Source: a virus (lineage: Duplodnaviria > Heunggongvirae > Uroviricota > Caudoviricetes). Taken from it: a stretch of DNA of 64,000 nucleotides. The notes under the pieces are model-generated. The model searched no databases, was not told the DNA's origin, and saw nothing but the letters and a program-made list of their open reading frames with translations. The DNA is taken from positions 41,120 to 105,119 of IMG/VR virus record IMGVR_UViG_3300043410_001642. One strand, 5' to 3'. Numbering within the stretch: position 1 is the first letter of the stretch; every line of letters begins with the position of its first letter. Shown here piece by piece: positions 1,609 to 62,882 of this stretch. Both the position numbers and the translations under genes were made by a program.

Positions 1609-1609
1609 T

Positions 1610-28438: not shown

Positions 28439-29646
28439 CAAAAAATGTTCCTTTAGAAATTGCACCTAATGAGGTTTGCAAAGTAGTTATGGTTGGTAAT
28501 AAGTTCCATATGGTTACATCCAATGGTACTGATATCGGATTCGGTGGTGCTAATACGGCCACTCGTAAAAAGGCTTATGATTCTAATAAGGCCTTAAAAA
28601 ATCAGTTAAATAAAGGTGGTAAATCTCAATGGAGACAAGTTGAGATGAATGAGTATAATATGCTCGTTCAACCTTTGAAAGAAAATGGTGAGGTGAATTT
28701 AGAACCTGCCAATTCTCATGATGAAATTAAAAAAATCATCCACGAAGATTCTATCAAATTAAAACCGGAGAGTTTAGTAATCAAAGATATCAAATGGAAA
28801 TATTTGATTCGTTCTGCGGTGCGTGGTAAAAATATTATGATGACAGGGCCTGCTGGTTGTGGTAAAACAATGGCGGCTAAGTTCTTAGTTACTCAATTAG
28901 AACGACCTGATTTCTACTTCAACTTAGGTTCTACGCAAGACCCGAGAGCAACTTTGGTTGGTAATACCCAATTCAACAAAGAGAGTGGAACTTACTTCTC
29001 TGAATCGGCTTTCGTTAAGGCAATCAAAACTCCTAAAGCAATCATCTTATTAGATGAGTTGAGTAGAGCTCACCCTGATGCTTGGAATATCTTAATGACG
29101 GTGTTAGACCAAAACCAACGATACCTTCGTTTGGATGAGGCTGAAGGTTCTCCAATTGTTAAGGTTGCTGAAGGTGTTACATTCATCGCAACTGCCAACA
29201 TCGGTAATGAATACACTGCGACAAGGGTGTTGGATAGAGCTATCTTAGACCGTTTCGTAATGATTGAGATGGATGTGTTGAATAGTGAAGAAGAGTTTGG
29301 ATTACTTAAGAAGATGTATCCAGAGGTTGTTGAAGATGATTTGAAAGCGGTTGCTGAGATTGCTCATCACTCAAGAGAGGTGAGCCGTTCAGAGGTTGCT
29401 AAATTAAGTAACATGATTTCAACGAGAGCTTCGGTTGAGATGGCTGGGTTGTTATATGATGGGTTCTCATTGATGGAGGCCGCAGAGGTTGCTATCTTAC
29501 CTTTCTTCTCTAACGATGGAGGTTTGGAAAGTGAAAGAACTTATGTGAAGCAGTTGGTTCAGAAATATATTAAGACAACTGATGATAATCTCTTCAACGA
29601 AATAAAAGAAGAAGAGAAAGAAAACGAAGAAACAATTGTTTGGTAA
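28439..29646 (+). CDS. MoxR/CbbQ-like AAA+ ATPase (CobS-like)
   Basis: Walker A MMTGPAGCGKTMAAKF; Walker B ILLDELSRA; sensor region TANIGNEYTATRVLDRA; ATG at 28439 preferred over track TTG 28399. Confidence 0.75.
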
Positions 29647-35013: not shown

Positions 35014-36036
35014 ATGAGAGAGGTAGTATGTGCAGGTTGCTCATTTACCAATTTTAATACATTGGATAAAGATATGGCCTACAATGGTATAACACCCGAA
35101 GTGGATGGTGTTAAACCGATGGGATCATATCCTGAAGCAATTCATAGAAATTTTAAGAATAAGGTATATAATTTAGGAATGGCAGGTAATAACATTGCCA
35201 CATCCGTATTATCTCTTATTGCAACTGCTGATAGATTGTTGAAAGAAAAGAAGAATATATTTCTTATTCTTCAATGCACCGAATTCACAAGAAAAAGTTT
35301 TTATCTACCATCTTCTTTTCAAATACGAAAGAACATTGGAATAGATGATGCGGTTAGAAATAACAATTATCTATTTGATGAAGGCGGTAGTGGATTTTTT
35401 CAATTCGGAACATTGTCCGGAGCAAGAGATGGATTCTCTGCAATTGAATCTATAAAGAATATAGCAAAGAGTTATTCAGAACATGCTTATTCTATTGAGA
35501 GTGGATATATTGATTCCATTACTCACATCTTATTATTACAAAACTATTGTAAGGTAAATAACATTCCCTATAAAATATTTTTAAAAACGGAATCATTTAG
35601 TATTCCATTCCATCCCCTATTCAATATACCAAATGAAAAAGCGGGAATGGAAGATATATTTGATGCAATATTTGTAAGAAAGAAACTATTCAGAAAGAAT
35701 CCTTTAACATTTGTAAATTCTGACCCGTATATCAAAAACTTATTTGGTATGTTAGATTTAGATTCCTTTTGGTTCTTAGATGATGTTGATTGTAGATATG
35801 GTGGTATAACCGAATGGGTTTATGTTCGTAATCAATATAATAATGGTGATAAAACTTATATACCATTAGTTGTAGAAGATATAGACGAGCAACCTATTAA
35901 ACATACATACCAATACCCAATTGAGAGAGCAAAGGAAAAGATTAAGAATGGAACTTTTGATCCAAACGGGCATCCATCTTATTATTATTGGGATTTATTT
36001 GTTCAAAATGAAATGAGTAAATGGGGATTTCTATAA
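35014..36036 (+). CDS. hypothetical protein (distant SGNH-like paralog?)
   Basis: N-terminus VVCAGCSFTNF resembles degenerate GDSxT block of downstream paralogs. Confidence 0.35.
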   Translation: MREVVCAGCSFTNFNTLDKDMAYNGITPEVDGVKPMGSYPEAIHRNFKNKVYNLGMAGNNIATSVLSLIATADRLLKEKKNIFLILQCTEFTRKSFYLPSSFQIRKNIGIDDAVRNNNYLFDEGGSGFFQFGTLSGARDGFSAIESIKNIAKSYSEHAYSIESGYIDSITHILLLQNYCKVNNIPYKIFLKTESFSIPFHPLFNIPNEKAGMEDIFDAIFVRKKLFRKNPLTFVNSDPYIKNLFGMLDLDSFWFLDDVDCRYGGITEWVYVRNQYNNGDKTYIPLVVEDIDEQPIKHTYQYPIERAKEKIKNGTFDPNGHPSYYYWDLFVQNEMSKWGFL

Positions 36037-37166
36037 ACATATTGCCAGTATTATATGATGAAGGAACTGATGTAAAGTTTTCTCCTATAAAAGATTTCAA
36101 ACAAAGAGAATGGTTGGAAGGGAACAACTATTGGTTTAAGGAATTTGAAAAGCTAACTGGTGTAACTTTAAATTATTCTGAAACTGATACAACTCTTTTG
36201 ATATTATACAATGGACAATTAGAACCTATAATAACTGAAGGGAATTATTTCAAAGAGATTAAGAGAAAGATTGATATAGGAACATACAAAAAAGTTATAC
36301 TATATCAGAATGAAGTGAATTGGGATACATTTGAAAGATTATTAGATATAGAGGATTTCTTCTATGATATTTTTAGAAATGATAAACGATTCCTTTTTGT
36401 AAGAAATATATTTCAAAGTAGATTCAATTTTACAAAGATAAATTCTGAATTTACATTTGGTTGTTTTCCATTTCAAATACTTCATAACTTTAATGAAACG
36501 AATGATATCAATTGGGGTGTTGAAAAGAAACATTATCTATTTTCCGCTAATTGTAATGTTAAAGAAGAGAGATTACATTTCTATGAGTTTTTAGAAAAAG
36601 GAAACTATTGGGATAAATGTAATGTTTCATTCTTTTTACCATTGATGGGTATTCAGACAAAGAGATTTGTTCCATCGGAATACATAGGTAATTTGGGCAA
36701 ATTAGACTTGGATATACAATACTTGCCAAAGAAATTGAAATATGATGATGAGTTGAATGTAAAGAAGCTACCGATAAAAGATAGTTTAGAATGCTTATTT
36801 CAGATGATATTTGAAACTCGTTATCATTCACATTGTGGCATAGTATTAAGTGAGAAGTTATTCAAAGGATTTATGTATAGAACTCCTTTCATAGTATATG
36901 GACAACATGGTATATTGAAACTATTAAAAGAAAAAGGATTTAAAACTTTTGATTGGTTGATAGATGAGAGTTATGATTGGGAGATTGATAATATAAAAAG
37001 ATTAGAAATGGTTTTGAAAGAGATTGATAAATTATTAAACACTCCATTTGAAGCCATAGAACGATTGATAACACAACATCAACAGGATTTGGTTCATAAT
37101 AGATATTGGGCAGAAGAATTTGCTAAAACTGAAATTAATAAACTAAAAGAAATAATAACTAAATGA
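36021..37166 (+). CDS. glycosyltransferase, GT10 (fucosyltransferase)-like
   Basis: Paralog of 40563-41777; C-terminal FETRYHSHCGIVLSEKLFKGF...PFIVYG pattern resembling the FucT motif. Confidence 0.45.
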   Translation: MGISINILPVLYDEGTDVKFSPIKDFKQREWLEGNNYWFKEFEKLTGVTLNYSETDTTLLILYNGQLEPIITEGNYFKEIKRKIDIGTYKKVILYQNEVNWDTFERLLDIEDFFYDIFRNDKRFLFVRNIFQSRFNFTKINSEFTFGCFPFQILHNFNETNDINWGVEKKHYLFSANCNVKEERLHFYEFLEKGNYWDKCNVSFFLPLMGIQTKRFVPSEYIGNLGKLDLDIQYLPKKLKYDDELNVKKLPIKDSLECLFQMIFETRYHSHCGIVLSEKLFKGFMYRTPFIVYGQHGILKLLKEKGFKTFDWLIDESYDWEIDNIKRLEMVLKEIDKLLNTPFEAIERLITQHQQDLVHNRYWAEEFAKTEINKLKEIITK

Positions 37167-38422
37167 TAAACAAAGATACATTTTGTATTTTACCTTTTAT
37201 CCATCTATCGGTTTTCCAAGATGGTAAGGTGAAACCATGTTGTATGGCGGATTCATTTATTAAAGAAAACTATAATGATAGTGAAGGGTTTGAAGAATTC
37301 TTTCAAAATGAATCATACCAAAAATTAAGAGATGATTTAAAAAATGGAGTTAAGAATTCACTATGTGATGTTTGTTGGAAGAAAGAAGATTTAGGTGGTA
37401 GAAGTTTTAGACAAGAGAAGAATGCACACTTCAAAAAACAATATGATAAGTTTCTAAAAGATGAAGAGAGTAATCCGGAGTTAGTATTTTTGGATATACG
37501 ATTCTCTAACCAATGTAACTTTAAATGTAGAATGTGTGGTGAGAGAGATTCTACATCTTGGTATGAAGAGAGAGAAACATTTTGGAATGACGAGTGTGTA
37601 AAGCCGGTTTTAGAGAAATTGGTTAAAGGTGGAGGAGACCCAAAGGATTTATACAATTATATAAAACCATTTGATTCTAAAAAATTACACATCTTAAGAA
37701 AACAATTTACCGAACAGGAATTGAATGAATTAGAGTATGTGTATATAGCAGGTGGAGAACCATTGTATGCTAAAATGGTATGGGATTTTATAGAAAAGAT
37801 ACCACATCCAGAAAATGTAACACTCCAATTTCAGACAAACTTTTCATTGTTGGAATACAAAGATAAATCCATCTTTGAATTTACTAAAAACTTTAAACAA
37901 GTAGTCTATTCAATATCATTAGACGGATTGTTTGAAGTAGGAGAGTTTCAGAGAACTAATTTTAAAACCGATGTATTCTTAGCTAATCTTAATAGATTGA
38001 ACGAAGAGATTAAAACTAATTCAAACATTAGTTATGATTTCACCTATACTACATCATTGATAAATGTATTTAGTTTCTTTGAAACATTTGATTACTTAAT
38101 AGAGAATGGATATATAGAAGATTATTCTAACATTCGTCTTCAGATAGTTCAATGGCCTAAACATTTGGATGCAAAGAATTATCCACTATCAAATAGAATA
38201 AAGAAATATTATAGTAGAACAAATATAAAAGGTATCCATAAGAATCCTTTTTTAAAGGGAGATATTGATAACTTAATAAGGCATGTTGAACAAGGAATAG
38301 AAGGAGATTTGAATGAACATTTATTTGAATTGACACGAATGATACGATTCTCTTCTGAATACAACAATCTTACAATACCAGAGAACTTAAAAAATTTAGA
38401 TAACTTAAAAAAAATAATTTAA
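37163..38422 (+). CDS. radical SAM domain protein
   Basis: CxxxCxxC motif (FSNQCNFKCRMCGE) with additional Cys clusters; ATGA overlap with upstream. Confidence 0.55.
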   Translation: MINKDTFCILPFIHLSVFQDGKVKPCCMADSFIKENYNDSEGFEEFFQNESYQKLRDDLKNGVKNSLCDVCWKKEDLGGRSFRQEKNAHFKKQYDKFLKDEESNPELVFLDIRFSNQCNFKCRMCGERDSTSWYEERETFWNDECVKPVLEKLVKGGGDPKDLYNYIKPFDSKKLHILRKQFTEQELNELEYVYIAGGEPLYAKMVWDFIEKIPHPENVTLQFQTNFSLLEYKDKSIFEFTKNFKQVVYSISLDGLFEVGEFQRTNFKTDVFLANLNRLNEEIKTNSNISYDFTYTTSLINVFSFFETFDYLIENGYIEDYSNIRLQIVQWPKHLDAKNYPLSNRIKKYYSRTNIKGIHKNPFLKGDIDNLIRHVEQGIEGDLNEHLFELTRMIRFSSEYNNLTIPENLKNLDNLKKII

Positions 38423-38423
38423 A

Positions 38424-38837
38424 ATGGAAAGAAAGTATTTGCCAACATTAGCTGAATTAATTGATAGATTAAGCATCACTCAATTAAAAGAGGTATTCAT
38501 CACTGACCACAAAGAAGAATATTCAAAAGAGATAGCAGATATTGTGCATGATATTGATGTTATATTACAAGAAAGAGTGGATATTCAAGGAGGTGATATT
38601 ACAGGTGAAACTATTAGAGCAATCATAGTATTGGCACAAATGAATTTACACATCTGGCATAATGAATCAAATGTTAGAAATGGCAGTGAAGGTCCGAATG
38701 CATTGGCATTAACTCATGGATTGAATGGAATCCGTAATACTGCTAAGAATAGAATACAAGAAGTTGTGGGTGGTAGAAAAGATTACAAAATAGATTGTTT
38801 AGCAGCAGATTTCAAAGATTGGGAAATCAGTTGGTAA
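38424..38837 (+). CDS. hypothetical protein
   Basis: 137-aa ORF. Confidence 0.4.
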   Translation: MERKYLPTLAELIDRLSITQLKEVFITDHKEEYSKEIADIVHDIDVILQERVDIQGGDITGETIRAIIVLAQMNLHIWHNESNVRNGSEGPNALALTHGLNGIRNTAKNRIQEVVGGRKDYKIDCLAADFKDWEISW

Positions 38838-38860
38838 GATATATATCATAAAGAAGGTTT

Positions 38861-39595
38861 ATGAAAATTTTAGTTATAGGAGATAGTTGCACTGATATAT
38901 TCATCTATGGTAATGTAAATAGATTATGTCCAGAAGCACCCGTTCCAGTATTTGAACCATCAAGAACAATTACAAATGATGGTATGGCAGGTAATGTTAG
39001 AGCAAATTTGGAATCATTGGGGGCAAGAGTAGAACTTATTACCAACAAAGAACAAATCACAAAGACAAGATATGTAGATGGTAAATCTAATCAAATGTTT
39101 ATCAGAGTTGATACATTGGATAAGGTTAAATCTGCATTTGATATTAATAGAGTAGATTGGAATGTAGATGCGGTAATCGTATCAGATTATGACAAGGGAT
39201 TCTTAACTGAAGATGATATTCATCAGATAAGTAAAAAACATCCACTCACATTTATTGATACAAAGAAACCAATAAACTTACAAACATTTTCCGATTACAC
39301 TTATATCAAAATGAATGAGTGGGAATGGGAATTGTGTGAGAGAAAGGGTGCTAAATACGAAGATTGGGCAGACAAACTTATTATTACAATGAGTGAAAGA
39401 GGATGTTTATATCAGAACAAAGTGTATCCTGTAAATAGAGATATTGAGGTAAGAGATTTAAGCGGTGCAGGTGATACATTTATGGCATCATTGGTATTCA
39501 AATATATTGAAACCAAAAACTTAATAGAATCAATTAAATTTGCTAACGATTGTGCAACTAAGGTTGTGCAAAAAAGAGGAGTTACTACAATATGA
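38861..39595 (+). CDS. PfkB-family sugar kinase, HldE/RfaE domain I-like
   Basis: ILVIGDSCTDIF...PEAPVPV motif and C-terminal GAGDTF anion-hole motif. Confidence 0.65.
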   Translation: MKILVIGDSCTDIFIYGNVNRLCPEAPVPVFEPSRTITNDGMAGNVRANLESLGARVELITNKEQITKTRYVDGKSNQMFIRVDTLDKVKSAFDINRVDWNVDAVIVSDYDKGFLTEDDIHQISKKHPLTFIDTKKPINLQTFSDYTYIKMNEWEWELCERKGAKYEDWADKLIITMSERGCLYQNKVYPVNRDIEVRDLSGAGDTFMASLVFKYIETKNLIESIKFANDCATKVVQKRGVTTI

Positions 39596-40566
39596 ATGTA
39601 ATAGATTTCTTTGGGTGTAGTTTTACTGAAGCACCTAAACTTCCATACAAACCATCAGTTGATAAATTTGATATAGAATTATATTCTATGCATTGTCATG
39701 TAACGAAACCTATGAGCGGATTTTTGGAATTTGATATGGCATATAATAATTGTAATGATTATCAAATAAACAATTATGGTAAGGGAAGTTTTGGTAACTT
39801 TACTATAAAGAATGTAATATCCAATAAGGTAAAGAAATTAAATAAAGAAGATAATAATATTGCAATAGTTCAATTATCAGCCTTATTAAGAAACGAACAT
39901 AGTTGGGAATGTATTCAAGAAAAGGGGAGATATCAAAACGAAGATAAGGAAGTATTTGATATAGATTTCAATGCGGTTAAACCGGATTATATAGTAGAGG
40001 TTTCATCTATGGAAGAATATTATCAATCACATATTGATAATCTAAAATCTATACTTAGTTTATTAAAAGAAAACTATAATAGATATATTATATTTTTTGG
40101 ATGGGATGTATCAACTAAAGAATTTGCGAAAGTGGCAAATGAAGTTGGATTGTATGATGAGATATTAAACTACATATATGATTATCCATTATCCAAAAGA
40201 GAATACTTTGAGAATAATGATTCGTTCAACGATTTCATAAAAAGATGTAGAGGTAAGAGAGGAGGATTGTTGGAATATTCAGCCAATAAACTTCCTGAAG
40301 AAATTAGATATGCCGGTGAGAGAGACCATCATCCATCTTATTTTTCAAACAAAGTATTCTATGAAGAAGTAATAAAACCATTTTTAACTACTGATATAAA
40401 ATTAGATAAGGAATACTTCAATGAAGATGTAGTTGTTCAGTTTGAAGAATTTTTAAAACAATTGTGTGCAAAGAAATTAAAAGGTGGTGATTGGGAAGAA
40501 TATAACTATTCACAACTACAAATGGAATCAATTGGATATGTTAGAAAAACAATATTAAAGAAATGA
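39592..40566 (+). CDS. hypothetical protein (distant SGNH-like paralog?)
   Basis: N-terminus FFGCSFTEAP; ATGA overlap. Confidence 0.35.
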   Translation: MNVIDFFGCSFTEAPKLPYKPSVDKFDIELYSMHCHVTKPMSGFLEFDMAYNNCNDYQINNYGKGSFGNFTIKNVISNKVKKLNKEDNNIAIVQLSALLRNEHSWECIQEKGRYQNEDKEVFDIDFNAVKPDYIVEVSSMEEYYQSHIDNLKSILSLLKENYNRYIIFFGWDVSTKEFAKVANEVGLYDEILNYIYDYPLSKREYFENNDSFNDFIKRCRGKRGGLLEYSANKLPEEIRYAGERDHHPSYFSNKVFYEEVIKPFLTTDIKLDKEYFNEDVVVQFEEFLKQLCAKKLKGGDWEEYNYSQLQMESIGYVRKTILKK

Positions 40567-41777
40567 AAAATTTAGTTTTTTATAGATACTTTTCTAATCA
40601 TAAAAGAGAAGTTGAGTTTGAAGATTTTAATATAGATTCGGAATACTTTGCTGAAAGGGAATTATTCTCATTAAGAAAGAATTATTTTTTCACAACACTA
40701 AGTGATTACAATATTGTTACAAACGAATCTGATGTAAATGGATTAAATGATTTCACTCTATTGATTGGGTTTGACCCTTCATTCAAAGAAATGTTTGAAT
40801 TGATTGAGAGAGAAGATTTTAATAACATAATAGACCAGAATATATCAAAGATAAAAAAGATTATATTTTGGGAAATGGATACAGGATGGACAAACTATTC
40901 TTACAATGAATATCAATCTTTATCAGTTCCATTTAAACAATGGTTCAGTGATAAGAACATAGAGATTGAAATATTCACAAATGCTATGTCATTTAAGTAT
41001 GATGAAGAAGTTAAGTATTGGCCTTCACATAACTCAATGGTAATAGAAAGATTAGTTAGAGAATTGGAAAAGGCTAACTATTATGATATGGAGTTTGATA
41101 GAACTAAATACTTCTATGCAACTTCCAATTCATTGAATGTAGATAGATTACACTTCTACAAATATATGCATGATAATAAGATTTGGGAAAAGAATAACAT
41201 TGCTTTATTCTCTACATTTAGAAATAGTGAGCATGATGGAGGATTCCCTTACTCATATGTTAGAGAGATAAGAGGTAATTGTGGATTGGATGATATTGGA
41301 GATGATTACATATTCTATCCAAAACCATTCAAAGATGAAAACTTTCAAACTATGAATTATTCGGTATTATCAAATATTCAGAAGTTAAGAGAATGTTATT
41401 TTGAAATGGTGTTTGAAACGATATACGAAGCAAATGAAAATATGATAATCCAAACATCGGAAAAGACATGGAAACCTTTGGCTCAAAAGATACCATTTAT
41501 TACATTCTCATATGGTGATGTATTGAAAGAGTTTAAGAAATTAGGATTTAAAACATTTGATTTCATATTTGATGAGAGTTATGACAATGAAAGAAATACT
41601 CATAAAAGATTGTATAAAGTATTAGAGCAAATCGGAAAGGTTTGTAATATGAGTTTAGATGAGTTAAAGGAATATGAAAGTGAAATAAAAGCGGTAACGG
41701 ATTACAATTTTAATAACTTAAAAGAGGTCTTTTCTCTATGGAGAAATAGACTAAGAGATGCAGTTTATTATGAGTAA
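40563..41777 (+). CDS. glycosyltransferase, GT10 (alpha-1,3-fucosyltransferase)-like
   Basis: FETIYEANENMIIQTSEKTWKPLAQKIPFITFSYG resembles FucT FENS...ITEKLWK...VPVV motif; paralog of 36021-37166. Confidence 0.5.
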   Translation: MKNLVFYRYFSNHKREVEFEDFNIDSEYFAERELFSLRKNYFFTTLSDYNIVTNESDVNGLNDFTLLIGFDPSFKEMFELIEREDFNNIIDQNISKIKKIIFWEMDTGWTNYSYNEYQSLSVPFKQWFSDKNIEIEIFTNAMSFKYDEEVKYWPSHNSMVIERLVRELEKANYYDMEFDRTKYFYATSNSLNVDRLHFYKYMHDNKIWEKNNIALFSTFRNSEHDGGFPYSYVREIRGNCGLDDIGDDYIFYPKPFKDENFQTMNYSVLSNIQKLRECYFEMVFETIYEANENMIIQTSEKTWKPLAQKIPFITFSYGDVLKEFKKLGFKTFDFIFDESYDNERNTHKRLYKVLEQIGKVCNMSLDELKEYESEIKAVTDYNFNNLKEVFSLWRNRLRDAVYYE

Positions 41778-42477
41778 GATGATTTTTTTAGGTGATAGTT
41801 TCACTTGGGGACAGGGTCTTTATTTCTATAAATGGAGAGATGAAGGTAGAAAATTTGAAGGTGAATTGGGTGGTATGTATGATTCTCATTCAAACTATGT
41901 AACTCCTGAAGATGTTATATATAAAGATAATCTATCATACACAGGATTGGTATCAAGTTATTACAATACATCTCAATTCAAACGAACAAGAAACGGAGGA
42001 AGTAATACTGATATAGTGTTGGATATGATTCCTATGATAGATAGAGAAAACAATGATATAGATAAATTGGTATTTCAATTTACTACTATATCAAGATACT
42101 TCTTCAGAGATTTGAATATGTCTCATATTGAAATTGTATATAAAGATGGAGAGAATAGGTATATTGATGATATTATTCAAGAAAGAGCTAGAAATTTCTT
42201 TAACTATATAGATGGGATATTAACATATTTTTCAAACCTGTATAAGTTTGAATATTGTTATTTAGATTGGTTGGGAGATTTTTATCAATTCAACCCCGAT
42301 AAGTTTGTAACATATAATGTAAATGAAAAGGAATATAAACATTTCCATCCGTTCTTAGAACAATATAAAATAGATATGTTTGTGGATAATAGAGCGATAA
42401 TAGATTTACATCTAAACAAAGAGGGGCAACAAATTTTATCAAGAGGAATAATAAATCATTTTAATGGCAAGGGATAA
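41758..42477 (+). CDS. SGNH/GDSL hydrolase-like protein
   Basis: Block I FLGDSFTWGQG. Confidence 0.5.
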   Translation: MQFIMSKMIFLGDSFTWGQGLYFYKWRDEGRKFEGELGGMYDSHSNYVTPEDVIYKDNLSYTGLVSSYYNTSQFKRTRNGGSNTDIVLDMIPMIDRENNDIDKLVFQFTTISRYFFRDLNMSHIEIVYKDGENRYIDDIIQERARNFFNYIDGILTYFSNLYKFEYCYLDWLGDFYQFNPDKFVTYNVNEKEYKHFHPFLEQYKIDMFVDNRAIIDLHLNKEGQQILSRGIINHFNGKG

Positions 42478-43261
42478 ATACATACTATTTTTAGGTGATA
42501 GTTTCACTTGGGGGCAGGGATTATATCTACCATCTTGGGTTGAAAGAAAACCAGAAGTTCTCCATCAGTTTTTAGAAACTCATAAAGGAAGTGCATATGA
42601 AATTGCTATGCAATGGGTTGAGCAAGAACCTCATTTTGATTTGGAAGATGCTAAAATAAAAGAAAAGTTATCCTTTACCGGAATAGTGGGGCATAGATTA
42701 GATAGAAAGGTTATTAAAAAGGCAAATAATGGAGGTTCTATAACTACAAATTTAGTTCAATTGAATAATAAAGTATTCCCATATTATATAAATGATGATA
42801 TGGAAATAGGGTATATTGATTTGTATGATAGATTCCTACCAAAAGATTGTATTATAGTTTTCCAATTTTCATCAGTAGGGAGAGAAGATTTTGATAATTT
42901 AACTGAAGAAGAAATGAATATGGTATTTGAAACATCTAAATCTTTCAAAGATATTATATATGATAGAATAAAAGGATTGTTTGACAAAGTTGATTCTAAA
43001 TTAATGGAAATTGAGAAAAAGTATGGATTCAAATATTATTATTTAGATTGGTTAGGAGATTTCTATGATTTTAAGCCAGAGAAATTCATAACTATAAATG
43101 GTCATCATTATTTCAATACGATGACTGCTACAAATTACATAAAAGTTCCATATAAGGATAAGTTTGTATGCGATGGACATATAAATGAATATGGTAATAT
43201 GATAATTGCTAAAAACATCTTAAAAAAAATAAATGAAGATAATTTGGATAATTCCAAATAA
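42464..43261 (+). CDS. SGNH/GDSL hydrolase-like protein
   Basis: Block I FLGDSFTWGQG; paralog of upstream gene (shared YYLDWLGDFY motif). Confidence 0.5.
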   Translation: MARDKYILFLGDSFTWGQGLYLPSWVERKPEVLHQFLETHKGSAYEIAMQWVEQEPHFDLEDAKIKEKLSFTGIVGHRLDRKVIKKANNGGSITTNLVQLNNKVFPYYINDDMEIGYIDLYDRFLPKDCIIVFQFSSVGREDFDNLTEEEMNMVFETSKSFKDIIYDRIKGLFDKVDSKLMEIEKKYGFKYYYLDWLGDFYDFKPEKFITINGHHYFNTMTATNYIKVPYKDKFVCDGHINEYGNMIIAKNILKKINEDNLDNSK

Positions 43262-43289: not shown

Positions 43290-43586
43290 ATGATAGAGTT
43301 CATCAAAAAACATTACGGAAAAATTGGAATGAGTTTTGCATTAGTTATGTTGGTTATTAACTATTTTCAAAGACAAGAATTAGCAGAATTAAGAGCTAAA
43401 GTAAATACGGAAGTAGTTGTGGGCGGTGATATTCAAAAAGCGGAAGTAATTGATTCATTAGAAAATGAAGTATTCAATTTACAAACAATCAATGGTAGGT
43501 ATGAAATGGCTTTGGAAATCTTAAAAGAAGATGATAAGAAAGCTGCCGATAAATTTGAATTAATATTATCAACACAAACCGAATAG
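43290..43586 (+). CDS. hypothetical protein
   Basis: 98 aa, TM + coiled-coil. Confidence 0.35.
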   Translation: MIEFIKKHYGKIGMSFALVMLVINYFQRQELAELRAKVNTEVVVGGDIQKAEVIDSLENEVFNLQTINGRYEMALEILKEDDKKAADKFELILSTQTE

Positions 43587-43712: not shown

Positions 43713-44204
43713 ATGAGAAAGGAAAAGATTTTTTTGTATTTGGATGATGTAAGAACTCCAACTGATGAAGGATGGCAAGTAGTTAGAAATTATGATGAGT
43801 TTGTAGCACATATTAGATTAAACGGAATAGAAAACTATGAAGTAATTTCTTTGGATCATGATTTAGGAGAAGCAGCAATGGTTGAGTATTATACTAATGT
43901 AAAACCAAACTATGAATTGGATTACAATAGAATAGACGAAAAGACTGGGTATGATTGTGCTAAGTTTTTAGTTGCAGAAGCAATGACTAAGAACATACCA
44001 CTACCTGCAATCTATGTTCATTCTGCTAATCCAATTGGTTCAGCTAATATGATGGGATATATTAACAACTATTATAGAAATCATAAAATGCCAGAAGTAT
44101 GCACAAAGGTAAATATTGAACATACTTATGCACCCGAAGTTGTATTAACACCGGAGGAAAGAAATGCTAGATGGAATATTATGAAAGATGCTCGTAAAAA
44201 GTAA
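43713..44204 (+). CDS. hypothetical protein
   Basis: 163-aa ORF. Confidence 0.4.
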   Translation: MRKEKIFLYLDDVRTPTDEGWQVVRNYDEFVAHIRLNGIENYEVISLDHDLGEAAMVEYYTNVKPNYELDYNRIDEKTGYDCAKFLVAEAMTKNIPLPAIYVHSANPIGSANMMGYINNYYRNHKMPEVCTKVNIEHTYAPEVVLTPEERNARWNIMKDARKK

Positions 44205-44207: not shown

Positions 44208-44507
44208 ATGACAGAAAAGAAAAAAGAAGCAGAATTTCACATTGGAGATGGAAAACATTTAACTGTAAAAAGTTCAACAACTGCATTAATGAAAGACCAA
44301 TTGAAATTAATGATTGGTGATGGAAAGAGTATTACATTAGATGTAGAAATTAAAGCTGATTTTGAAAAAATACCAACTGAATATCATTACTTATTCATAC
44401 AAATGATGCAGGTTAGATATGGAAGTATAATAAACTTATGGGATAATACCCAACCATTTGCTAAACCAGATGTTAAGAAAAAGAAATGGTATCAGTTTTG
44501 GAAATAA
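44208..44507 (+). CDS. hypothetical protein
   Basis: 99-aa ORF. Confidence 0.4.
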   Translation: MTEKKKEAEFHIGDGKHLTVKSSTTALMKDQLKLMIGDGKSITLDVEIKADFEKIPTEYHYLFIQMMQVRYGSIINLWDNTQPFAKPDVKKKKWYQFWK

Positions 44508-45039: not shown

Positions 45040-45069
45040 TAATATATTTATATCAAAATAAAATAGTAT

Positions 45070-45471
45070 ATGGCGTATTCAGATAAGGTATTAGACCATT
45101 ATAGTAATCCCAAAAATGTTGGAACTCTGGATAAGAGTAAAGATAATGTAGGAACTGGATTGGTAGGAGCACCTGAATGTGGAGATGTTATGAGGTTACA
45201 AATAGAAGTAAACGACGGTATAATAACCGATGCCAAATTCAAAACATTTGGTTGTGGTTCAGCTATCGCCGCTTCTTCTCTTGCAACCGAATGGTTAAAG
45301 GGTAAGAGTGTGGAGGAAGCCATCACAATTGATAATATGGATTTGGTAGAAGAACTAAACCTACCACCTGTTAAGATTCATTGTTCAGTATTAGCGGAAG
45401 ATGCTATAAAATCTGCTATTAATGATTATAGAATTAAAAACGGAATGGAGGAATTGGTTTTTGAAAACTAA
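45070..45471 (+). CDS. iscU: Fe-S cluster assembly scaffold IscU
   Basis: Near full-length match to IscU signature (MAYSDKVLDHYSNPKNVG...GAPECGDVMRLQI...FKTFGCGSAIASS...PPVKIHCSVLAEDAIKSAI); three conserved Cys and LPPVK motif. Confidence 0.85.
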   Translation: MAYSDKVLDHYSNPKNVGTLDKSKDNVGTGLVGAPECGDVMRLQIEVNDGIITDAKFKTFGCGSAIAASSLATEWLKGKSVEEAITIDNMDLVEELNLPPVKIHCSVLAEDAIKSAINDYRIKNGMEELVFEN

Positions 45472-45478
45472 ACCCTAA

Positions 45479-46114
45479 ATGAAAAAATTGTTAATGGTGG
45501 CTACCTTATTGTGTGTAATGGTAGTAGTAAAGGCACAAGATGTAGTTGAATTAAAACATATCAACTACACAACACACTTCAGTAAATCAAAGAAATATCC
45601 TGTAATGGTAGAGTGGTGGGAAACCAAAATAAAAATTGGTTGTGAAACACCATTACCTAGAAAGGATAACTTCAAACCAGACCCATTATTACCAAACGAA
45701 ACTAACATTGGTCAGGATTATGTAAATAGTGGATATGATAGAGGTCACTTAATGCCGGCAAAATCAAACCAATGCCAAACTACTGCGGTGCAAGATGAAT
45801 GTTTCTATTATTCTAATATGGCTGCACAAACACATAGATTAAATGCAGGTGATTGGAAATCATTAGAAACTTTAACACGAGAATTAGCAGTTAAAGAAGA
45901 TTCGGTTCATGTTTGGGCTGGTAATGTTGGTGAGATTAAAAAGATAGGTACAACATCAGTTCCAAAACAATGTTGGAAAGTTGTTCATATTAAGAAAACA
46001 AATGAGTGGATGTTCTTCTTATTTGAAAATGATTTATCAGCACCGGATGGTATTAATAACAATAAGGTGTTAAGAGAAGATATAGAAAAATTAACAGGTT
46101 TTAAATTTAATTAA
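45479..46114 (+). CDS. secreted DNA/RNA non-specific endonuclease (Serratia NucA / EndoG family)
   Basis: Signal peptide; active-site motif GYDRGHLMPA. Confidence 0.7.
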   Translation: MKKLLMVATLLCVMVVVKAQDVVELKHINYTTHFSKSKKYPVMVEWWETKIKIGCETPLPRKDNFKPDPLLPNETNIGQDYVNSGYDRGHLMPAKSNQCQTTAVQDECFYYSNMAAQTHRLNAGDWKSLETLTRELAVKEDSVHVWAGNVGEIKKIGTTSVPKQCWKVVHIKKTNEWMFFLFENDLSAPDGINNNKVLREDIEKLTGFKFN

Positions 46115-46115
46115 A

Positions 46116-46439
46116 ATGATTACCGTCACTGAAACGGCTAGTAAAAAAATACAAACTCTTGTAGAAGAAAGTGGTTATACTACTCCTTATTTAAGAGTTG
46201 CAGTTAAAGGAGGAGGTTGTAGTGGATTATCATACGACCTCTCCTTTGATACTGATATGAAACCATCTGATATGTTATTTGAAGACAAAGATGTAAAAGT
46301 ATTAGTAGATAATAAATCCCTTCTTTATTTATTTGGAACTGAATTAGATTATTCTGATGGCTTAAATGGTAAAGGATTTGAGTTTAAGAATCCAAATGCA
46401 TCCCGAACTTGTGGATGTGGAGAAAGCTTTGCGGTATAA
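46116..46439 (+). CDS. iscA: Fe-S cluster A-type carrier (IscA/ErpA/HesB family)
   Basis: ITVTETASKKI...VKGGGCSGLSYDL...C-terminal TCGCGESF, the three conserved Cys of A-type carriers. Confidence 0.8.
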   Translation: MITVTETASKKIQTLVEESGYTTPYLRVAVKGGGCSGLSYDLSFDTDMKPSDMLFEDKDVKVLVDNKSLLYLFGTELDYSDGLNGKGFEFKNPNASRTCGCGESFAV

Positions 46440-47305
46440 TGAAACAATTTGACACAATTTATATAAACGGAAGTAGTTTAAGTTGTGGAGGTGGATTGGA
46501 ACCTGATTCTCCACCATACAAACATTATGTTTATACTGAAAATATTAAACAATGGTCTAATAGTAAAAGTGTATCATATGGTAATGTATTGGGTGATATG
46601 TTAGGAAAAGAAGTTATCAATGAATCCAAACAGGGCGGAGGATTAGATAGACTTATCAGAAAAACATATGATTTTATATTAAACACTCCAATTGATAAAT
46701 TAGAAAAAATATTATTTCTTTTTGATATACCCCTACAACCTACTAGAATAGAAATATATTCTAATCAATATGAAGATTATTTAGTGTGTTCAGTTGCATT
46801 AGATTCTAATGGTAATCAATCGACCGTTGAGGTTAGAAGTGAAGGGAAATGGTGGGATTCTAAATTATCAATATCAAGAGGGTTTTTCAGACCAGAATTG
46901 AGAATACCTTATGTTGAGTATGTAAAACACGATAAGATATTAAATGATTACATAACTGGATACTACAATAAAGAAATAGAAATAAGAAGAATGATGAGAG
47001 AACTTACAATGTTCTATTCATTTATGGATTCATTTAAGTTGAATTATGTTAGAGATAGCACTGATAATTTGTTTGCAGCATCTTCTAATATAAATGATGA
47101 GAAACTAAAAATGGATTACTTAAAAAGAATGGAAGAGCATGCAAGTTTTAATCCTAATGTAATAGATTGTCAATCTATATGGGGATTATCCCAAAAAATG
47201 AAATGGACTATTGCCGATGAAACTCCTATAAATGATGCTCACTTAGGATATTATGGAAATAAAAAATACGCCGAATATCTCTTTGAAAAAATTAAATATT
47301 TATAG
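46439..47305 (+). CDS. hypothetical protein (distant SGNH-like paralog?)
   Basis: ATG at 46439 (MKQFDTIYINGSSLSCGGG) preferred over track TTG 46409; ATGA... overlap with iscA stop. Confidence 0.4.
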   Translation: MKQFDTIYINGSSLSCGGGLEPDSPPYKHYVYTENIKQWSNSKSVSYGNVLGDMLGKEVINESKQGGGLDRLIRKTYDFILNTPIDKLEKILFLFDIPLQPTRIEIYSNQYEDYLVCSVALDSNGNQSTVEVRSEGKWWDSKLSISRGFFRPELRIPYVEYVKHDKILNDYITGYYNKEIEIRRMMRELTMFYSFMDSFKLNYVRDSTDNLFAASSNINDEKLKMDYLKRMEEHASFNPNVIDCQSIWGLSQKMKWTIADETPINDAHLGYYGNKKYAEYLFEKIKYL

Positions 47306-49102: not shown

Positions 49103-49573
49103 ATGAAAAGAATAATAATACTATGGATATGTGTGTTATGGGCATATTTTGTAAATGCACAAACTGCTGAAAATGGATTCAATGATGTAATCACAACTGA
49201 TACTACATTGAATAACTTTATGACACATTGGATGCGAAAGCCATATAAATTGGGAGGAAGCACTGAAAGAGGTATTGATTGCTCACAATTCACAAAGAGA
49301 TTGTATATGGATGTATATAATAAACAATTGGCGAATGTAGCGTATAAACAATGGAATCAAACTGAAAGAGTTAAAAAGGATAGTTTGGTAGTTGGAGATT
49401 TAGTATTCTTCAGAAGCAAAGTATCACCATCGGGGTGGCATTGTGGATTGTATATTGGTAATACATATTTTATTCATGCCTCCAACAAAATTGAAGGTGT
49501 AAAGATTAGTAGTTTAAACGAACCCCGATATAAACGGGCATATAAAGGAGCAGGAAGATTAAAAGATAAATAA
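49103..49573 (+). CDS. secreted NlpC/P60-family cell-wall peptidase
   Basis: Signal peptide; catalytic Cys in GIDCSQFT and His in HCGLYIGNTYFIHAS. Confidence 0.6.
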   Translation: MKRIIILWICVLWAYFVNAQTAENGFNDVITTDTTLNNFMTHWMRKPYKLGGSTERGIDCSQFTKRLYMDVYNKQLANVAYKQWNQTERVKKDSLVVGDLVFFRSKVSPSGWHCGLYIGNTYFIHASNKIEGVKISSLNEPRYKRAYKGAGRLKDK

Positions 49574-53961: not shown

Positions 53962-55059
53962 ATGAAACGAATAATAACATCATTCTGCATCCTGACAATG
54001 TTGGGATGTAGTAAAGATGATATCATAACTCCAAACCCAATTGAGACAATTGTAGGATATAAAAATCAAACTACAAATTCAATCAGATTACAATCTAAAG
54101 TTTGGCAATGGTATAATGAGAATACATCTTTTTATGCTGATATAAATTTGGATGGTAAGGAAGAAGTTTTTATTGCAAATGAAAATTCAAAACCAATAGT
54201 AATGTGGAATGATAATACATCTACAACTATTTCAGATGGTCTTAATATCTTTCCTCGTTCAATTATAGGAAATGATTTTAATGGAGATGGTTATATTGAT
54301 TTCGTAGTAATGGTTCATAACAATGAGCAACTACAACCAAACCCAGGAGAAATACCAAACTTATATTTGAATGATAAGAAAGGTGGATTCATAGTAAGCA
54401 AGTTAAATCTAAAATCAGCATTTTGGCATTTAGGATCATCTGCGGATATTGATAAGGATGGTGATATAGATTTAGTAGTATGCACTGCCGGTTCAGTTAA
54501 TATAATGATTAACGACGGCAAAGGTGGATTTACATTAGATAATAGTAGAATACCTTCAACATATACAAACTCACATTATATAGGAGGAATGTTGGAGGAT
54601 ATCAACGGAGATGGTTATATAGATTTATTGGTATATGGAGCAGAGTTTAATTCATTACCTAATAACACCGGTTTCGGCAAAGATAATCCATCTAAAACAA
54701 GAATACTATGGGGTAATAGTTCATTCAGCTACACCGAAGCAAATTCTATGATATTGCCAAATGATTCAGATGGATTTGGATTGATAATAGATGCCGTTTG
54801 TGTTGATTTAAATGATGATGGGAAGAAAGAAATTATATTGGATAGAACCGGTGACCCATTAAACTTTACATTCTATAAAGGATATAAGATTCAAATATTA
54901 ACGGAAGGCAATGATGTAACTAATAACTTTATTTCAAATGCTAGTTCAAAGACTGATGATTGGATTGTTTGGTTGAAAGTTATGGATGTTAATGGTGATT
55001 ACAAAAAAGATGTATTGGAAGGTAATAAAAGAAGAGTAAAATATTTTTTACAAAAATAG
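53962..55059 (+). CDS. FG-GAP/VCBS-repeat lipoprotein (beta-propeller-like)
   Basis: Lipobox LTMLGCSKDD; six DxNxDGxxD-type repeats (DINLDGKEEVF, DFNGDGYIDFVV, DIDKDGDIDLVV, DINGDGYIDLLV, DLNDDGKKEIIL, DVNGDYKKDVL). Confidence 0.55.
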   Translation: MKRIITSFCILTMLGCSKDDIITPNPIETIVGYKNQTTNSIRLQSKVWQWYNENTSFYADINLDGKEEVFIANENSKPIVMWNDNTSTTISDGLNIFPRSIIGNDFNGDGYIDFVVMVHNNEQLQPNPGEIPNLYLNDKKGGFIVSKLNLKSAFWHLGSSADIDKDGDIDLVVCTAGSVNIMINDGKGGFTLDNSRIPSTYTNSHYIGGMLEDINGDGYIDLLVYGAEFNSLPNNTGFGKDNPSKTRILWGNSSFSYTEANSMILPNDSDGFGLIIDAVCVDLNDDGKKEIILDRTGDPLNFTFYKGYKIQILTEGNDVTNNFISNASSKTDDWIVWLKVMDVNGDYKKDVLEGNKRRVKYFLQK

Positions 55060-59279: not shown

Positions 59280-59735
59280 ATGGAATACAAAAGGCTATAC
59301 GATGGAGAAAAAGTAAATCTAATACAATATGTAGGGGATTACTTAACAACAAAAGAAAATGTAGAAATACTGATTGGTTGTGATTCACAAAACTTTTCCG
59401 ATAAAACTATCTATGCCATTGTTGTAGCCCTATACGATAAAGGTAAAGGAGCACATGTTTTATATAAGAAATGGAAAACTGATAGAGAATGGACAAGAAA
59501 TATCAGATTACTAAACGAAGTGTGGTATGCAGTAGAAGTTGCAGAGGCAATGAAAGCAGCAGGATTACCAAAAGTTAAATGGATTGATATTGATATTAAC
59601 CCAGACCCAAGATACAAATCAAATGAAGTGTTAAGACAAGCAGTTGGTATGGTAGAAGGAATGGGATATAAAGTGAGATACAAAACATTAGGCCCAATTG
59701 CAACATATTGTGCTGACCATTTGGTAAAATTATAG
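59280..59735 (+). CDS. hypothetical protein
   Basis: 151-aa ORF between tRNA groups. Confidence 0.4.
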   Translation: MEYKRLYDGEKVNLIQYVGDYLTTKENVEILIGCDSQNFSDKTIYAIVVALYDKGKGAHVLYKKWKTDREWTRNIRLLNEVWYAVEVAEAMKAAGLPKVKWIDIDINPDPRYKSNEVLRQAVGMVEGMGYKVRYKTLGPIATYCADHLVKL

Positions 59736-61305: not shown

Positions 61306-61875
61306 ATGTTAAGAGAATTTAAATTAAATTGGACATTAGATTCTAACTTAAATGATGTAGATGAAAAGGATAAAATCATATATCAGTTGATTGAAGAAAC
61401 TGCTAACGATTCAAATTCATCTAAATTTAGAGAAGATGTTACTAAATGGATTGTTGGATTGGAAGCATCTGAAGGTAAACATGGATATGATGATGATTTT
61501 GAAGCAATTGAAGTAAAGCCGAAAAACTTTACTGGAAAAACAAAATTAAATGGAGGTGGTCAATTTACTGATTTTACTTGGAAAAGAGATGAAAAATATT
61601 CTAATGATAAAGTTGTAATGATGGTTAGTGGATTTTGTTATGGTAAATTAGTGTTCGTAGTTGAATTTAAATATGAAGATATTAAAAGTAAAATACAATC
61701 TAAATTAAGCAGAATTCTTCCAGATGGAGATTTGCCAAATAGATATGTTCGTTCTGCTAGTTTTTCATATTTAGATTGGAAGAATTCATTTGAATTGAAA
61801 TATATTTCACCAAATTTTGAATCATTCAAACATAGTATGGTAGTTGGATTATATAATTTATTAAGTAACAAATGA
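61306..61875 (+). CDS. hypothetical protein (possible partner of downstream methyltransferase)
   Basis: 189-aa ORF overlapping MTase start by 4 nt. Confidence 0.4.
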   Translation: MLREFKLNWTLDSNLNDVDEKDKIIYQLIEETANDSNSSKFREDVTKWIVGLEASEGKHGYDDDFEAIEVKPKNFTGKTKLNGGGQFTDFTWKRDEKYSNDKVVMMVSGFCYGKLVFVVEFKYEDIKSKIQSKLSRILPDGDLPNRYVRSASFSYLDWKNSFELKYISPNFESFKHSMVVGLYNLLSNK

Positions 61876-62882
61876 TAGAGAAATTTTTAAATATAAAAAA
61901 TAGTTTAAGAAATTTATCGGAAGAAGAATTTGAATCATTGTTGCCGATATTAGCAAATGAATTAGAATCCGTAAATTATATACCAATATTTTCTGACAAA
62001 GATTTATATGATGATTGGATGAAATTAGTTGGGTGGAATTCAAATGTGAACTCAATTGCATCTGCTCAAAGAATTGGTATGAAATTATGTGAACATTTTT
62101 TTCCTAATTTCTATGATATAGAGAATAAAAAAGGAGATTCTTTTAAAACACTATGGAAATCTGATAAATTAGGTAAAATATTAAAATGGAATCGTAGCTC
62201 ACATACAACTCCATATCTTTCAGAGTTAAAGCGTGGTATATATTTTAATTATGGGTTAGCAAAATCAACTATGTATAGACCACAAATGGCTAAAATGGTT
62301 GTTAGTAATTTGGGAGCAAAGAGAGTATTAGACCCTTGTGCTGGTTGGGGTGGTAGAATGTTAGGAACAATTTCAGCTGGGGCTGAATATGTAGCATTTG
62401 AACCAAATACCGAAACATATAAAGGTTTATTGAGATTGGTAAAGTTTTTGAATATAGAAGATAAAGTAAGAATTGTAAATGATTCTGCTTTGGAAATGAA
62501 TAAATATGATATTGGTGAATTTGATTTGGTATTAACATCACCACCATATTTTGATTTAGAAGTTTATTCTCATGAAGATACTCAATCGGTAAAAGGATGT
62601 GATACTTATTCAATGTGGGTTAATAATTTTCTAAAACCATTGATTGAATTGGCAATATCACATATGAAAGAAGATGGTTGGAGTTGCTGGAATGTTCATA
62701 ATGTTGGTAAAATGAAAATGATTGATGATATAAAAGAAATACACGATGAATACAAAACTCAAAGAGTATTTTCAATAACATCATCAAAAAGACAGACAAA
62801 CCAAACTGATTCCGAAAAAAAGAATAAAGATGTAACAATATGTTATTCTAAATCGGAGAAAAGAGAAAATATATTTTTTTAA
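61872..62882 (+). CDS. DNA amino-methyltransferase (N6-adenine or N4-cytosine)
   Basis: AdoMet motif I VLDPCAGWGGRMLG and catalytic motif IV LTSPPYFD. Confidence 0.7.
   Translation: MIEKFLNIKNSLRNLSEEEFESLLPILANELESVNYIPIFSDKDLYDDWMKLVGWNSNVNSIASAQRIGMKLCEHFFPNFYDIENKKGDSFKTLWKSDKLGKILKWNRSSHTTPYLSELKRGIYFNYGLAKSTMYRPQMAKMVVSNLGAKRVLDPCAGWGGRMLGTISAGAEYVAFEPNTETYKGLLRLVKFLNIEDKVRIVNDSALEMNKYDIGEFDLVLTSPPYFDLEVYSHEDTQSVKGCDTYSMWVNNFLKPLIELAISHMKEDGWSCWNVHNVGKMKMIDDIKEIHDEYKTQRVFSITSSKRQTNQTDSEKKNKDVTICYSKSEKRENIFF

Follow-up and report, generated by a model that had tools for sequence, protein, structure and literature searches.

Why would a bacteriophage carry genes for an iron–sulfur (Fe-S) cluster scaffold and an A-type Fe-S carrier without one for the cysteine desulfurase IscS, and why would a gene for a nuclease predicted to be exported sit between them? 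The question is raised by a locus in a 64,000-nucleotide stretch of DNA, hereafter the window, that spans positions 41,120 to 105,119 of the IMG/VR record IMGVR_UViG_3300043410_001642, classified in the Caudoviricetes. Here, three open reading frames (ORFs) on the same strand encode, in order, the scaffold IscU, a non-specific nuclease of the DRGH type, and the carrier, whose gene we call iscA (Table 1). The first two are separated by 7 nt and the last two by 1 nt, and in TAATG (46437–46441) the stop codon of iscA overlaps the start codon of the following gene; this is the tight packing and stop/start overlap pointed out by an initial annotation made from the sequence alone. That annotation treated the three genes as one unit that boosts the iron and Fe-S supply of the element. 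We consider it probable that the two phage Fe-S proteins increase or maintain cluster assembly on the IscS of the host, the pair having been captured from a host operon, and that the nuclease is incidental to this function.

Table 1. Features of the Fe-S locus and other window genes discussed in the text; positions are those of the window.
Feature	Position	Strand	Remarks
Candidate promoter -7-like element, ATATTTAT	45044–45051	+	26 nt before the iscU ATG
iscU, Fe-S cluster assembly scaffold	45070–45471	+	133 aa; Bacteroidota type; C-terminal tail G-M-E-E-L-V-F-E-N
DRGH (beta-beta-alpha-Me) non-specific nuclease, predicted exported	45479–46114	+	211 aa; PF01223, phrog_14168
iscA, A-type Fe-S carrier, ErpA-like by score	46116–46439	+	107 aa; TIGR00049, NF010147
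Downstream gene with SGNH-hydrolase-like end motifs	46439–47305	+	ATG overlaps the carrier stop
7Fe-type ferredoxin	3355–3672	+	105 aa; CX2CX4CX3CP plus CX2CX2CX3CP; Fer4 Pfam, weak FdxA-like NCBIfam matches
2-oxoglutarate (2OG)-Fe(II) oxygenase	3992–4741		
TonB-dependent receptor	5068–7674 (ATG at 5131)		CarboxypepD_reg + Plug + barrel
Second large outer-membrane barrel	18241–21258		~1000 aa
Twitch-domain radical S-adenosylmethionine (SAM) enzyme	37163–38422	+	NF033640 277.9 bits vs. cut-off 170; CX3CX2C at residue 118

The product of the first gene is recognized as an IscU over practically its whole length. It matches Pfam NifU_N with E = 3.6e-50, covering profile positions 1–125 of 127, and scores 215 bits against the NCBIfam model TIGR01999 (iscU), above the curated equivalog cut-off of 192.4, with residues 3–124 lying on profile positions 1–123 of 124, i.e., a full-length match. 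Aligned to Haemophilus influenzae IscU (1q48, E = 3e-59) and human ISCU, the phage protein retains C37, D39, C62, and H104-C105, and the PDB alignments place LPPVK, the motif for the Hsp70-type chaperone, at residues 98–102; none of the conserved cysteines or LPPVK residues anticipated by the initial annotation has been lost. Across the 80 viral copies compared, the ligand residues, D39, and LPPVK show 100% conservation, and C37, D39, C62, and H104-C105 are likewise invariant across the ~80 cellular copies compared. Between the window IscU and its viral homologues, the proportions of nonsynonymous (pN) and synonymous (pS) differences are 0.09 and 0.73, and the ratio of nonsynonymous to synonymous rates (dN/dS) does not exceed 0.04, being about that value where dS is finite. 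The phage iscU is a real, intact gene under strong purifying selection, and its putative function would be the assembly and transfer of [2Fe-2S] and [4Fe-4S] clusters.

The third product matches Pfam Fe-S_biosyn (E = 9.2e-20; 71.4 bits, cut-off 26.3) and TIGR00049 (124.7 bits, cut-off 58.8). It narrowly passes the cut-off of the ErpA equivalog NF010147 (118.5 bits vs. 117) and stays below those of the IscA equivalogs (102 vs. 150.6–181) and of SufA (96 vs. 136.2); by position, it is the counterpart of the gene that follows iscU in the host operon. Its best PDB match is HI1723 (2apn), and its cysteine triad, C35 and C99-G-C101, aligns to those of HI1723 and Escherichia coli IscA. All three cysteines are 100% conserved in the viral copies compared, in keeping with the CxnCGC triad from which the initial annotation had recognized an IscA/ErpA carrier. 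Comparison with viral IscA homologues gives a pN of 0.18, a pS of 0.68, and a dN/dS of about 0.16 at most; in the iscU and iscA comparisons alike, synonymous sites are near saturation and the proteins are conserved. The A-type carrier is a real, intact phage gene kept by selection. In a homologue search with the carrier, the 120 best matches were all at least 76% identical and probably belong to the same lineage, and no closer cellular donor was gained.

The two genes belong together. A scan of IMG/VR with the IscU protein found at least 591 contigs of up to 335 kb, and the counts given below for viral loci (gene order, junction content, and proximity of IscS) refer to the best 80 of these, which are 86–94% identical to the window protein. 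Downstream of IscU, 73 of these loci encode an IscA homologue, with a gap shorter than 50 bp in 45, and most of the loci lacking IscA end right after iscU. The conserved unit is iscU-iscA, not the trio.

The other components of the cellular machinery are missing from the window, as the initial annotation had also noted: tblastn with IscS queries from Acinetobacter and Chitinophagales, and with Acinetobacter IscR, HscB, HscA, and the [2Fe-2S] Isc ferredoxin (Fdx), gave no match below E = 0.2 in the 64 kb. Along the same lines, iscS lies within 6 kb of iscU in none of the 80 best viral loci. A missing neighboring IscS is a feature of operon context and therefore leaves the family membership of IscU unaffected. 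Viral contigs with IscS do occur. A single-sequence scan, too insensitive, gave three distant matches and was superseded by an alignment scan of IMG/VR, which, with two IscS/NifS-specific peptide patterns, found 111 viral contigs, the best 80 of which were listed. Compared by eye, these best 80 IscS contigs and the best 80 IscU contigs, five of which are 209–335 kb long, have no contig in common. The IscU found beside viral IscS is of a divergent type (52–81% identity), with 23 of 25 best matching Acinetobacter IscU and two matching the window IscU at 52–54%. The phage IscU is close to the host consensus and is therefore expected to bind the IscS and the chaperone of the host; its activity would depend on the former.

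The likely donor can be recognized in cellular genomes. The closest cellular IscU proteins are 81–90% identical to the phage one and nearly all labelled Bacteroidota, mainly Chitinophagales, with genera including Sediminibacterium, Ferruginibacter, and Ilyomonas. The gene order is iscS-iscU-iscA in 78 of the 80 closest cellular loci, and therefore the phage pair looks like that operon minus iscS; hscB, hscA, an Isc ferredoxin, and iscR were not detectable within 6 kb in these loci. The C-terminal IscU tail is common to the phage and the Bacteroidota and absent in Acinetobacter. Mean IscU identity is 0.89 among viral sequences, 0.87 among cellular ones, and 0.83 between the two sets, whose consensus sequences differ at only 2 of 133 positions. 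The corresponding values for IscA are 0.71, 0.81, and 0.60, i.e., the phage carrier has evolved faster than that of the host. In neighbor-joining trees, 80 of 81 viral IscU sequences group in a single pure clade that arises from within the cellular ones; for IscA, viral and cellular sequences stay apart, and cellular IscA is monophyletic apart from the viral sequences in 88 of 100 bootstraps. A single old capture of the adjacent pair from a host operon appears the most parsimonious account, although it is not proven. Judged by these sequence comparisons, the two genes, of cellular (Bacteroidota) origin and retained by selection, are probably viral auxiliary metabolic genes.

Some records in these comparisons carry labels that call for caution. 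In the neighbor-joining tree, L107 (CAIRSV010000294.1), a contig of a metagenome-assembled genome (MAG) labelled ‘Bacteroidetes’ with iscU and no iscS, adjoins the viral clade together with L156, and may be a mis-binned phage. A MAG labelled Caulobacter (L083, CALRMK020000004.1) has an iscSUA of the Bacteroidota type. ‘Acinetobacter phage MD-2021a’ (L002, CAKLQF020000009.1) was rejected as a phage precedent, the contig being a bacterial chromosome with a full iscRSUA-hscBA-fdx operon; its proteins, referred to here as Acinetobacter, served only as outgroup and as a source of queries.

In the scheme we propose, an ancestor of the lineage would have taken iscU and the adjacent carrier gene from a host iscS-iscU-iscA operon, leaving iscS behind, and the pair would then have been held under strong purifying selection. 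The phage IscU would dock on the host cysteine desulfurase IscS and build [2Fe-2S] and [4Fe-4S] clusters, which the phage carrier would hand to apo-proteins, so that Fe-S assembly capacity would rise, or be sustained, as host expression fails and demand climbs. The likely recipients would be the phage ferredoxin(s), the radical SAM enzyme, and host Fe-S enzymes needed by the phage. The nuclease would be a separate exported phage protein, co-transcribed at the junction and outside the Fe-S module. We infer the dependence on host IscS, the direction of cluster transfer, the identity of the clients, and the timing of expression.

Several observations weigh against this proposal. The viral IscU is monophyletic in 41 of 100 bootstraps, and the viral IscA is not monophyletic under an Acinetobacter root (4% bootstrap). 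The window represents 64 kb of a genome likely longer than 140 kb, and a divergent or SufS-type desulfurase may be encoded elsewhere in it. No capsid, terminase, or tail gene was recognized when more than 40 window ORFs were scanned against PHROGs and Pfam; the phage assignment, with which the data are consistent, rests on how IMG/VR classifies the syntenic relatives, together with indirect features. Lastly, the linkage of a ferredoxin to the pair in relatives, to which we now turn, could be plain synteny in a plastic region and not functional coupling.

Fe-S proteins of the element itself, as proposed in the initial annotation, are encoded in the window in the form of the 7Fe-type ferredoxin and the radical SAM enzyme. 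The ferredoxin is widespread: it was found on 64 viral contigs, and several of these encode the IscU as well. Its linkage to iscU-iscA in relatives takes two forms. In 20 of the 80 relatives, the gene for a 102-aa paralogue separates iscU from iscA, and the cluster w2463-w2684-w2922-ferredoxin, which occupies 2463–3672 in the window, 42 kb from the pair, directly follows iscU-iscA-w48032 in loci L295, L296, and L314. The last of these (IMGVR_UViG_3300027963_000034, 528–3312) carries both paralogues, in the order iscU, ferredoxin, iscA, w48032, w2463, w2684, a cytidylyltransferase-like gene, and ferredoxin. No 7Fe-type ferredoxin was found near the cellular isc loci. The linkage fits a route from scaffold to carrier to a [4Fe-4S]/[3Fe-4S] protein, and A-type carriers of E. 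coli have an established role in delivering clusters to [4Fe-4S]-type proteins. The ferredoxin at 3355–3672 is likely, if speculatively, a client of the phage Fe-S module, and possibly, as a further speculation, a reductant for cluster assembly. A more far-reaching version would make iscU-(7Fe ferredoxin)-iscA a vertically inherited, near-core, three-part Fe-S maturation module of a very abundant, uncultured freshwater jumbo-phage lineage of Chitinophagales, with the phage ferredoxin as assembly reductant; we hold this to be a tentative and rather doubtful extension. If it were true, the ferredoxin would stand in for the Isc-type [2Fe-2S] ferredoxin missing from Bacteroidota isc operons, and the phage would supply everything but the desulfurase.

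The radical SAM enzyme is ruled out as a conserved client, with no relatives found in viral contigs by a single-sequence scan, and is a possible [4Fe-4S] client specific to the window genome. Around it and a PfkB-like kinase (38861–39595) extends a run of overlapping-start genes (35014–43261), mostly with no family match, that looks like a biosynthetic or modification operon.

The initial annotation had further named a 2OG-Fe oxygenase and two TonB-dependent receptors, and the corresponding genes are there: one receptor with a Plug domain and barrel, and a second large outer-membrane barrel. Together with the ferredoxin, they invite the idea of a coordinated set of genes in which TonB-dependent receptors import iron and IscU/IscA channel it into Fe-S and Fe enzymes. 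The receptor is kept in the lineage at 65–92% identity on contigs of up to 330 kb, and the ferredoxin adjoins a receptor homologue in L322 and L323. We nevertheless find such coordination unlikely. The receptor matches only generic models and falls far below the cut-offs of the substrate-specific NCBIfam ones (52 bits vs. 323.75), the ‘Fe transport’ names attached to it are automatic Joint Genome Institute (JGI) labels, and many TonB-dependent receptors of Bacteroidota import glycans or vitamins. The receptor gene is 38 kb from iscU, and no siderophore, haem, or Fur-related gene was seen. As for the 2OG oxygenase, such enzymes use mononuclear Fe and have no Fe-S cluster. The earlier suggestion of a boosted Fe-S supply is plausible, and has precedent, for the assembly genes; its iron-uptake half is unsupported, and the radical SAM enzyme invoked as a client was not found in relatives. 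Phage-encoded TonB-dependent receptors seem unusual in themselves.

An IscU that binds IscS need not build clusters there. The phage protein might act as a competitor or decoy on the host IscS, redirecting sulfur among Fe-S clusters, tRNA thiolation, thiamine, and molybdopterin. Competition of IscS partners for binding sites is known (PMC11302051), IscU without IscS is the conserved state in these phages, the near-identity of the phage IscU to the host consensus implies that it should bind host IscS, and the phage has 23 tRNA genes. However, a mere binder would have no need of the cluster ligands, D39, and LPPVK, all of which are kept without exception, and a dedicated carrier is co-conserved next to the scaffold, with a ferredoxin linked to both. 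These three features together favor productive cluster synthesis and delivery, and we judge the decoy role improbable, slightly more so than coordinated iron import.

The nuclease is of the DRGH type that the initial annotation took it to be, and it is predicted to be exported. It matches Pfam Endonuclease_NS (PF01223) with E = 8.8e-32 and the family phrog_14168, has DRGH at residues 87–90 and SNM at 112–114, and its SNM...Q...N..W..LE metal-site region aligns to Anabaena NucA and EXOG. The N-terminus, MKKLLMVATLLCVMVVVKA|QD, read by eye, is built like a Sec signal peptide, with n, h, and c regions, hydropathy peaking at 3.1 over residues 7–17, and an apparent cleavage at VKA|Q; the mature portion contains four cysteines. 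Its position between the pair, as opposed to its identity, is exceptional. The nuclease lies between iscU and iscA in none of the 80 best IscU loci, and the window order recurs only in L254 (IMGVR_UViG_3300043567_000596) and in an independent JGI contig, to which an exact match of the carrier in a homologue search had pointed and whose carrier is identical to that of the window. Recurrence in these two contigs argues that the arrangement is real and inherited in a small sub-lineage.

A scan of IMG/VR for the nuclease found 41 viral contigs, and in 39 of these loci the gene is elsewhere than at the iscU|iscA junction. It occurs in at least five other contexts, most commonly after a homologue of the window gene at 21553–23046 (12 of 41 loci), and also downstream of an outer-membrane barrel or of w44208/w43290 and in the vicinity of w51608/w52587 or of the GH19 lysin; on single contigs, it can be 84 kb (3300046820_001270) or 175 kb (3300043395_001986) from iscU. 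This is a gene that moves among contexts. It directly follows iscA in L079 and L270, and a distant version (28% identity) directly precedes iscU in L034, which we read as shared residence in a plastic accessory region. In a 636-kb ‘huge phage’ record (LR756504.1, 393370–395833), a distant non-specific nuclease (25.5% identity) is found 1.6 kb downstream of an A-type carrier at 57% identity; IscU went undetected in this record.

The junction, for its part, is a recurrent insertion hot spot. It holds nothing in 45 loci, and its commonest insert is the 102-aa ferredoxin; others are a small membrane protein related to the window gene at 43290–43586, a 285-aa exported protein, and cassettes of 4–5 kb (e.g., L006, 6396–10543, as well as L081 and L082). 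Read by eye, these cassettes consist of genes of the sugar-nucleotide and glycosyltransferase type; they include an NAD-dependent epimerase, GT2-like glycosyltransferases, methyltransferase-like proteins, and a nucleotidyltransferase, and that of L082 also encodes a 394-aa protein with a RuBisCO-large-subunit-like GGAIHGHPDG motif.

The three-gene unit of the initial annotation is accordingly not conserved. One could still maintain that the trio is a single functional unit in which the exported nuclease cooperates with IscU and IscA, e.g., by scavenging nucleic acid from the periplasm or from outside the cell in a program of nutrient and iron supply, citing the tight packing, the probable co-transcription, the recurrence of the order in two other contigs, and the nuclease genes flanking the pair in L079, L270, and L034. 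Set against the distances and the variety of contexts just described, a junction that accepts ferredoxin, membrane-protein, or sugar-modification genes in other relatives, and a nuclease family that depends on Mg2+ and contains no Fe-S cluster, this has little to recommend it, and we rank it below the decoy. More probably, the nuclease gene was relocated into the iscU|iscA junction in the sub-lineage of the window only and is incidental to Fe-S function.

That the genes are not viral at all, i.e., host DNA, a chimeric assembly, or decaying captures without function, is scarcely credible: the window lacks recognizable structural hallmark genes and IscU is 81–90% identical to cellular copies, but iscS accompanies 78 of 80 cellular loci and none of the 80 viral ones within 6 kb, the neighboring genes are common to IMG/VR contigs of 100–335 kb, an independent assembly has the same order, and the proteins are conserved although their synonymous sites are close to saturation.

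The window most likely comes from a large phage that is uncultured. Its large ORFs all lie on the plus strand, the G+C content is ~31% (about 0.27–0.39), and relatives of window genes lie on IMG/VR contigs of 100–335 kb, for instance IMGVR_UViG_3300042391_000634 (335 kb), 3300046820_001270 (334 kb), 3300021962_000021 (238 kb), and 3300043395_001986 (237 kb); many of the IMG/VR contigs appear to stem from the Lake Mendota series. There are 23 tRNA genes between 55208 and 63516, with anticodons for 20 amino acids, including two Met, two Arg, and two Leu, and lysin-type domains were found at 15372–16208 (PG_binding and GH19) and 49103–49573 (NlpC/P60). Among cultured or deposited phage DNA, megablast gave no match for 25 kb of the window, and a more distant search gave short matches only. 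A tblastn search with the CobS/MoxR-like AAA ATPase encoded at 28399–29646 yielded no placement in a known phage family; this protein matches phrog_249, ‘porphyrin biosynthesis’, with E = 1.5e-30 and shares 56% identity with a Microcystis phage Mel-JY01 protein. Before it comes a 705-aa protein (26171–28288) with matches to PHROGs of unknown function only, which may be a partner. The tRNA array is interspersed with small ORFs, an RNaseH-like protein (59280–59735), and a DNA methylase-like gene (61872–62882).

The host is probably a freshwater member of the Bacteroidota, one of the Chitinophagales, because several features point the same way: the nearest cellular IscU, the IscU tail, the CarboxypepD_reg N-terminal domains of the receptors, the A-rich leaders without a Shine-Dalgarno sequence, and the signal peptides. 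Those predicted for the products beginning at 45479, 5131, and 18241 are all followed by Gln (VKA|QD, SFG|QI, and SFS|QI). An FG-GAP repeat protein (53962–55059) begins MKRIITSFCILTMLGC|SKDD, a lipoprotein signal followed by a K-D-D stretch, which we take to resemble the surface-lipoprotein export signal of Bacteroidota. Gln after the signal peptidase I cleavage site is known as the Bacteroidetes Q-rule (PMC5837995).

Around the locus, the gene whose ATG overlaps the carrier stop is probably co-transcribed with iscA and is not an Fe-S gene; a homologue follows IscA in L034 and L254, too. It is paralogous to the window gene at 4–846 (E = 2e-18), and perhaps also to that at 42464–43261, with no Pfam match. 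The family shows (G/N)(D/G)S...GGGL toward the N-terminus and D-x-H...YGN toward the C-terminus, resembling SGNH/GDSL hydrolases, and its copies are scattered in relatives at 26–48% identity. Upstream of iscU, ATATTTAT is found at a similar distance in many relatives with differing upstream genes, and also at 16242, 23288, and 50273, i.e., 24–31 nt before the genes at 16266, 23317, and 50304. It is not enriched across the window (14 occurrences vs. 21 expected) and may, on this weak evidence, be a promoter element. A 99-aa, Lys-rich protein without Cys (44208–44507) is encoded within ~0.5 kb upstream of iscU in 37 of the 80 related loci. The gene at 43713–44204, with a cREC_REC (cyclic-phosphate processing receiver) domain (E = 3e-24), provides the only DNA similarity to a cultured phage, 53 nt at 87% to Flavobacterium phage vB_FspM_immuto.

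Fe-S assembly genes are recurrent auxiliary metabolic genes in ocean viromes, and, to our knowledge, their mode of action is almost wholly obscure for want of cultured examples. The present locus offers a clean case, in which the probable donor operon is identifiable and the scaffold and carrier appear to have been taken and the desulfurase left. The scaffold is nearly identical to that of the host, which predicts direct use of host IscS, and the recurrent ferredoxin link offers a testable client or partner. The position of the nuclease, seemingly an accident of gene shuffling, cautions against inferring function from the tight packing of genes in accessory regions of phages. The case is a refinement of a known theme and opens no new one: viral IscU and carrier genes are already known, and what is particular here is the Bacteroidota source, the operon minus iscS, the retention of the pair, the ferredoxin link, and the insertion junction.

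Among known systems, the closest in kind are marine viral genomes. In a study of marine viromes and complete environmental viral genomes, 14 genomes had a carrier gene and six had IscU, and the same function was proposed (Nishimura et al. 2017, PMC5332604, with references to earlier virome work). Likewise of cellular origin, those genes represent IscU and/or a carrier, i.e., partial ISC machinery, alongside phage Fe-S proteins, radical SAM enzymes among them. The marine viral IscU grouped with gammaproteobacterial homologues and was scattered among relatives without IscU, whereas the lineage of the window has a Bacteroidota source, a probably freshwater habitat, an adjacent pair in 73 of its 80 best loci, and a link to a 7Fe ferredoxin. 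PHROGs has a family for IscU, phrog_8429, listed under auxiliary metabolic genes, and one for the carrier, phrog_17776. In one category of a viral-fraction metatranscriptome from Lake Baikal, proteins of the HesB/IscA/SufA family ranked among the most numerous (PMC9611531), and a paper on bS21-encoding freshwater jumbo phages makes no mention of iron, Fe-S, TonB, or nuclease genes (PMC9723584). The single clearly phage-context record among the 17 deposited records matched is phage C48C1 (OQ984149, Kyanoviridae), which encodes a NifU-like protein of the IscU type, 73% identical, among replication genes. Here, IscU stands alone with no adjacent carrier, and both the phage family and the IscU lineage, an outgroup in our tree, are different.

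For the nuclease, the DRGH motif and the metal-site Asn region are common to Anabaena NucA (1zm8), the Serratia nuclease (1ql0), EXOG, and the ‘periplasmic DNA/RNA non-specific endonuclease’ of the Klebsiella jumbo phages K64-1 and RaK2, and the window protein is predicted to be exported; identity to characterized or deposited phage members is only ~25–35%.

Compared with the ISC systems of E. coli and H. influenzae (IscU 1q48, 2l4x, and 3lvl; IscA/ErpA 1r94 and 2apn), the phage proteins have the same ligands and LPPVK, and the phage IscU shares 73% identity with the Acinetobacter IscU that served as reference. Unlike in those bacteria, hscBA, a [2Fe-2S] fdx, and iscR are not found nearby in either the phage or its Bacteroidota donors, and the phage carrier passes the ErpA cut-off, not that of IscA. 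A further close counterpart is the iscS-iscU-iscA operon found in Chitinophagales and in Bacteroidota at large, for instance in Ilyomonas limi (L098), Parasediminibacterium paludis (L100), and Sediminibacterium MAGs, in which IscU is 81–90% identical with the same tail, the carrier is 55–68% identical, and the order of iscU and then carrier is the same; the phage locus differs in having no iscS and in a junction that takes inserted genes.

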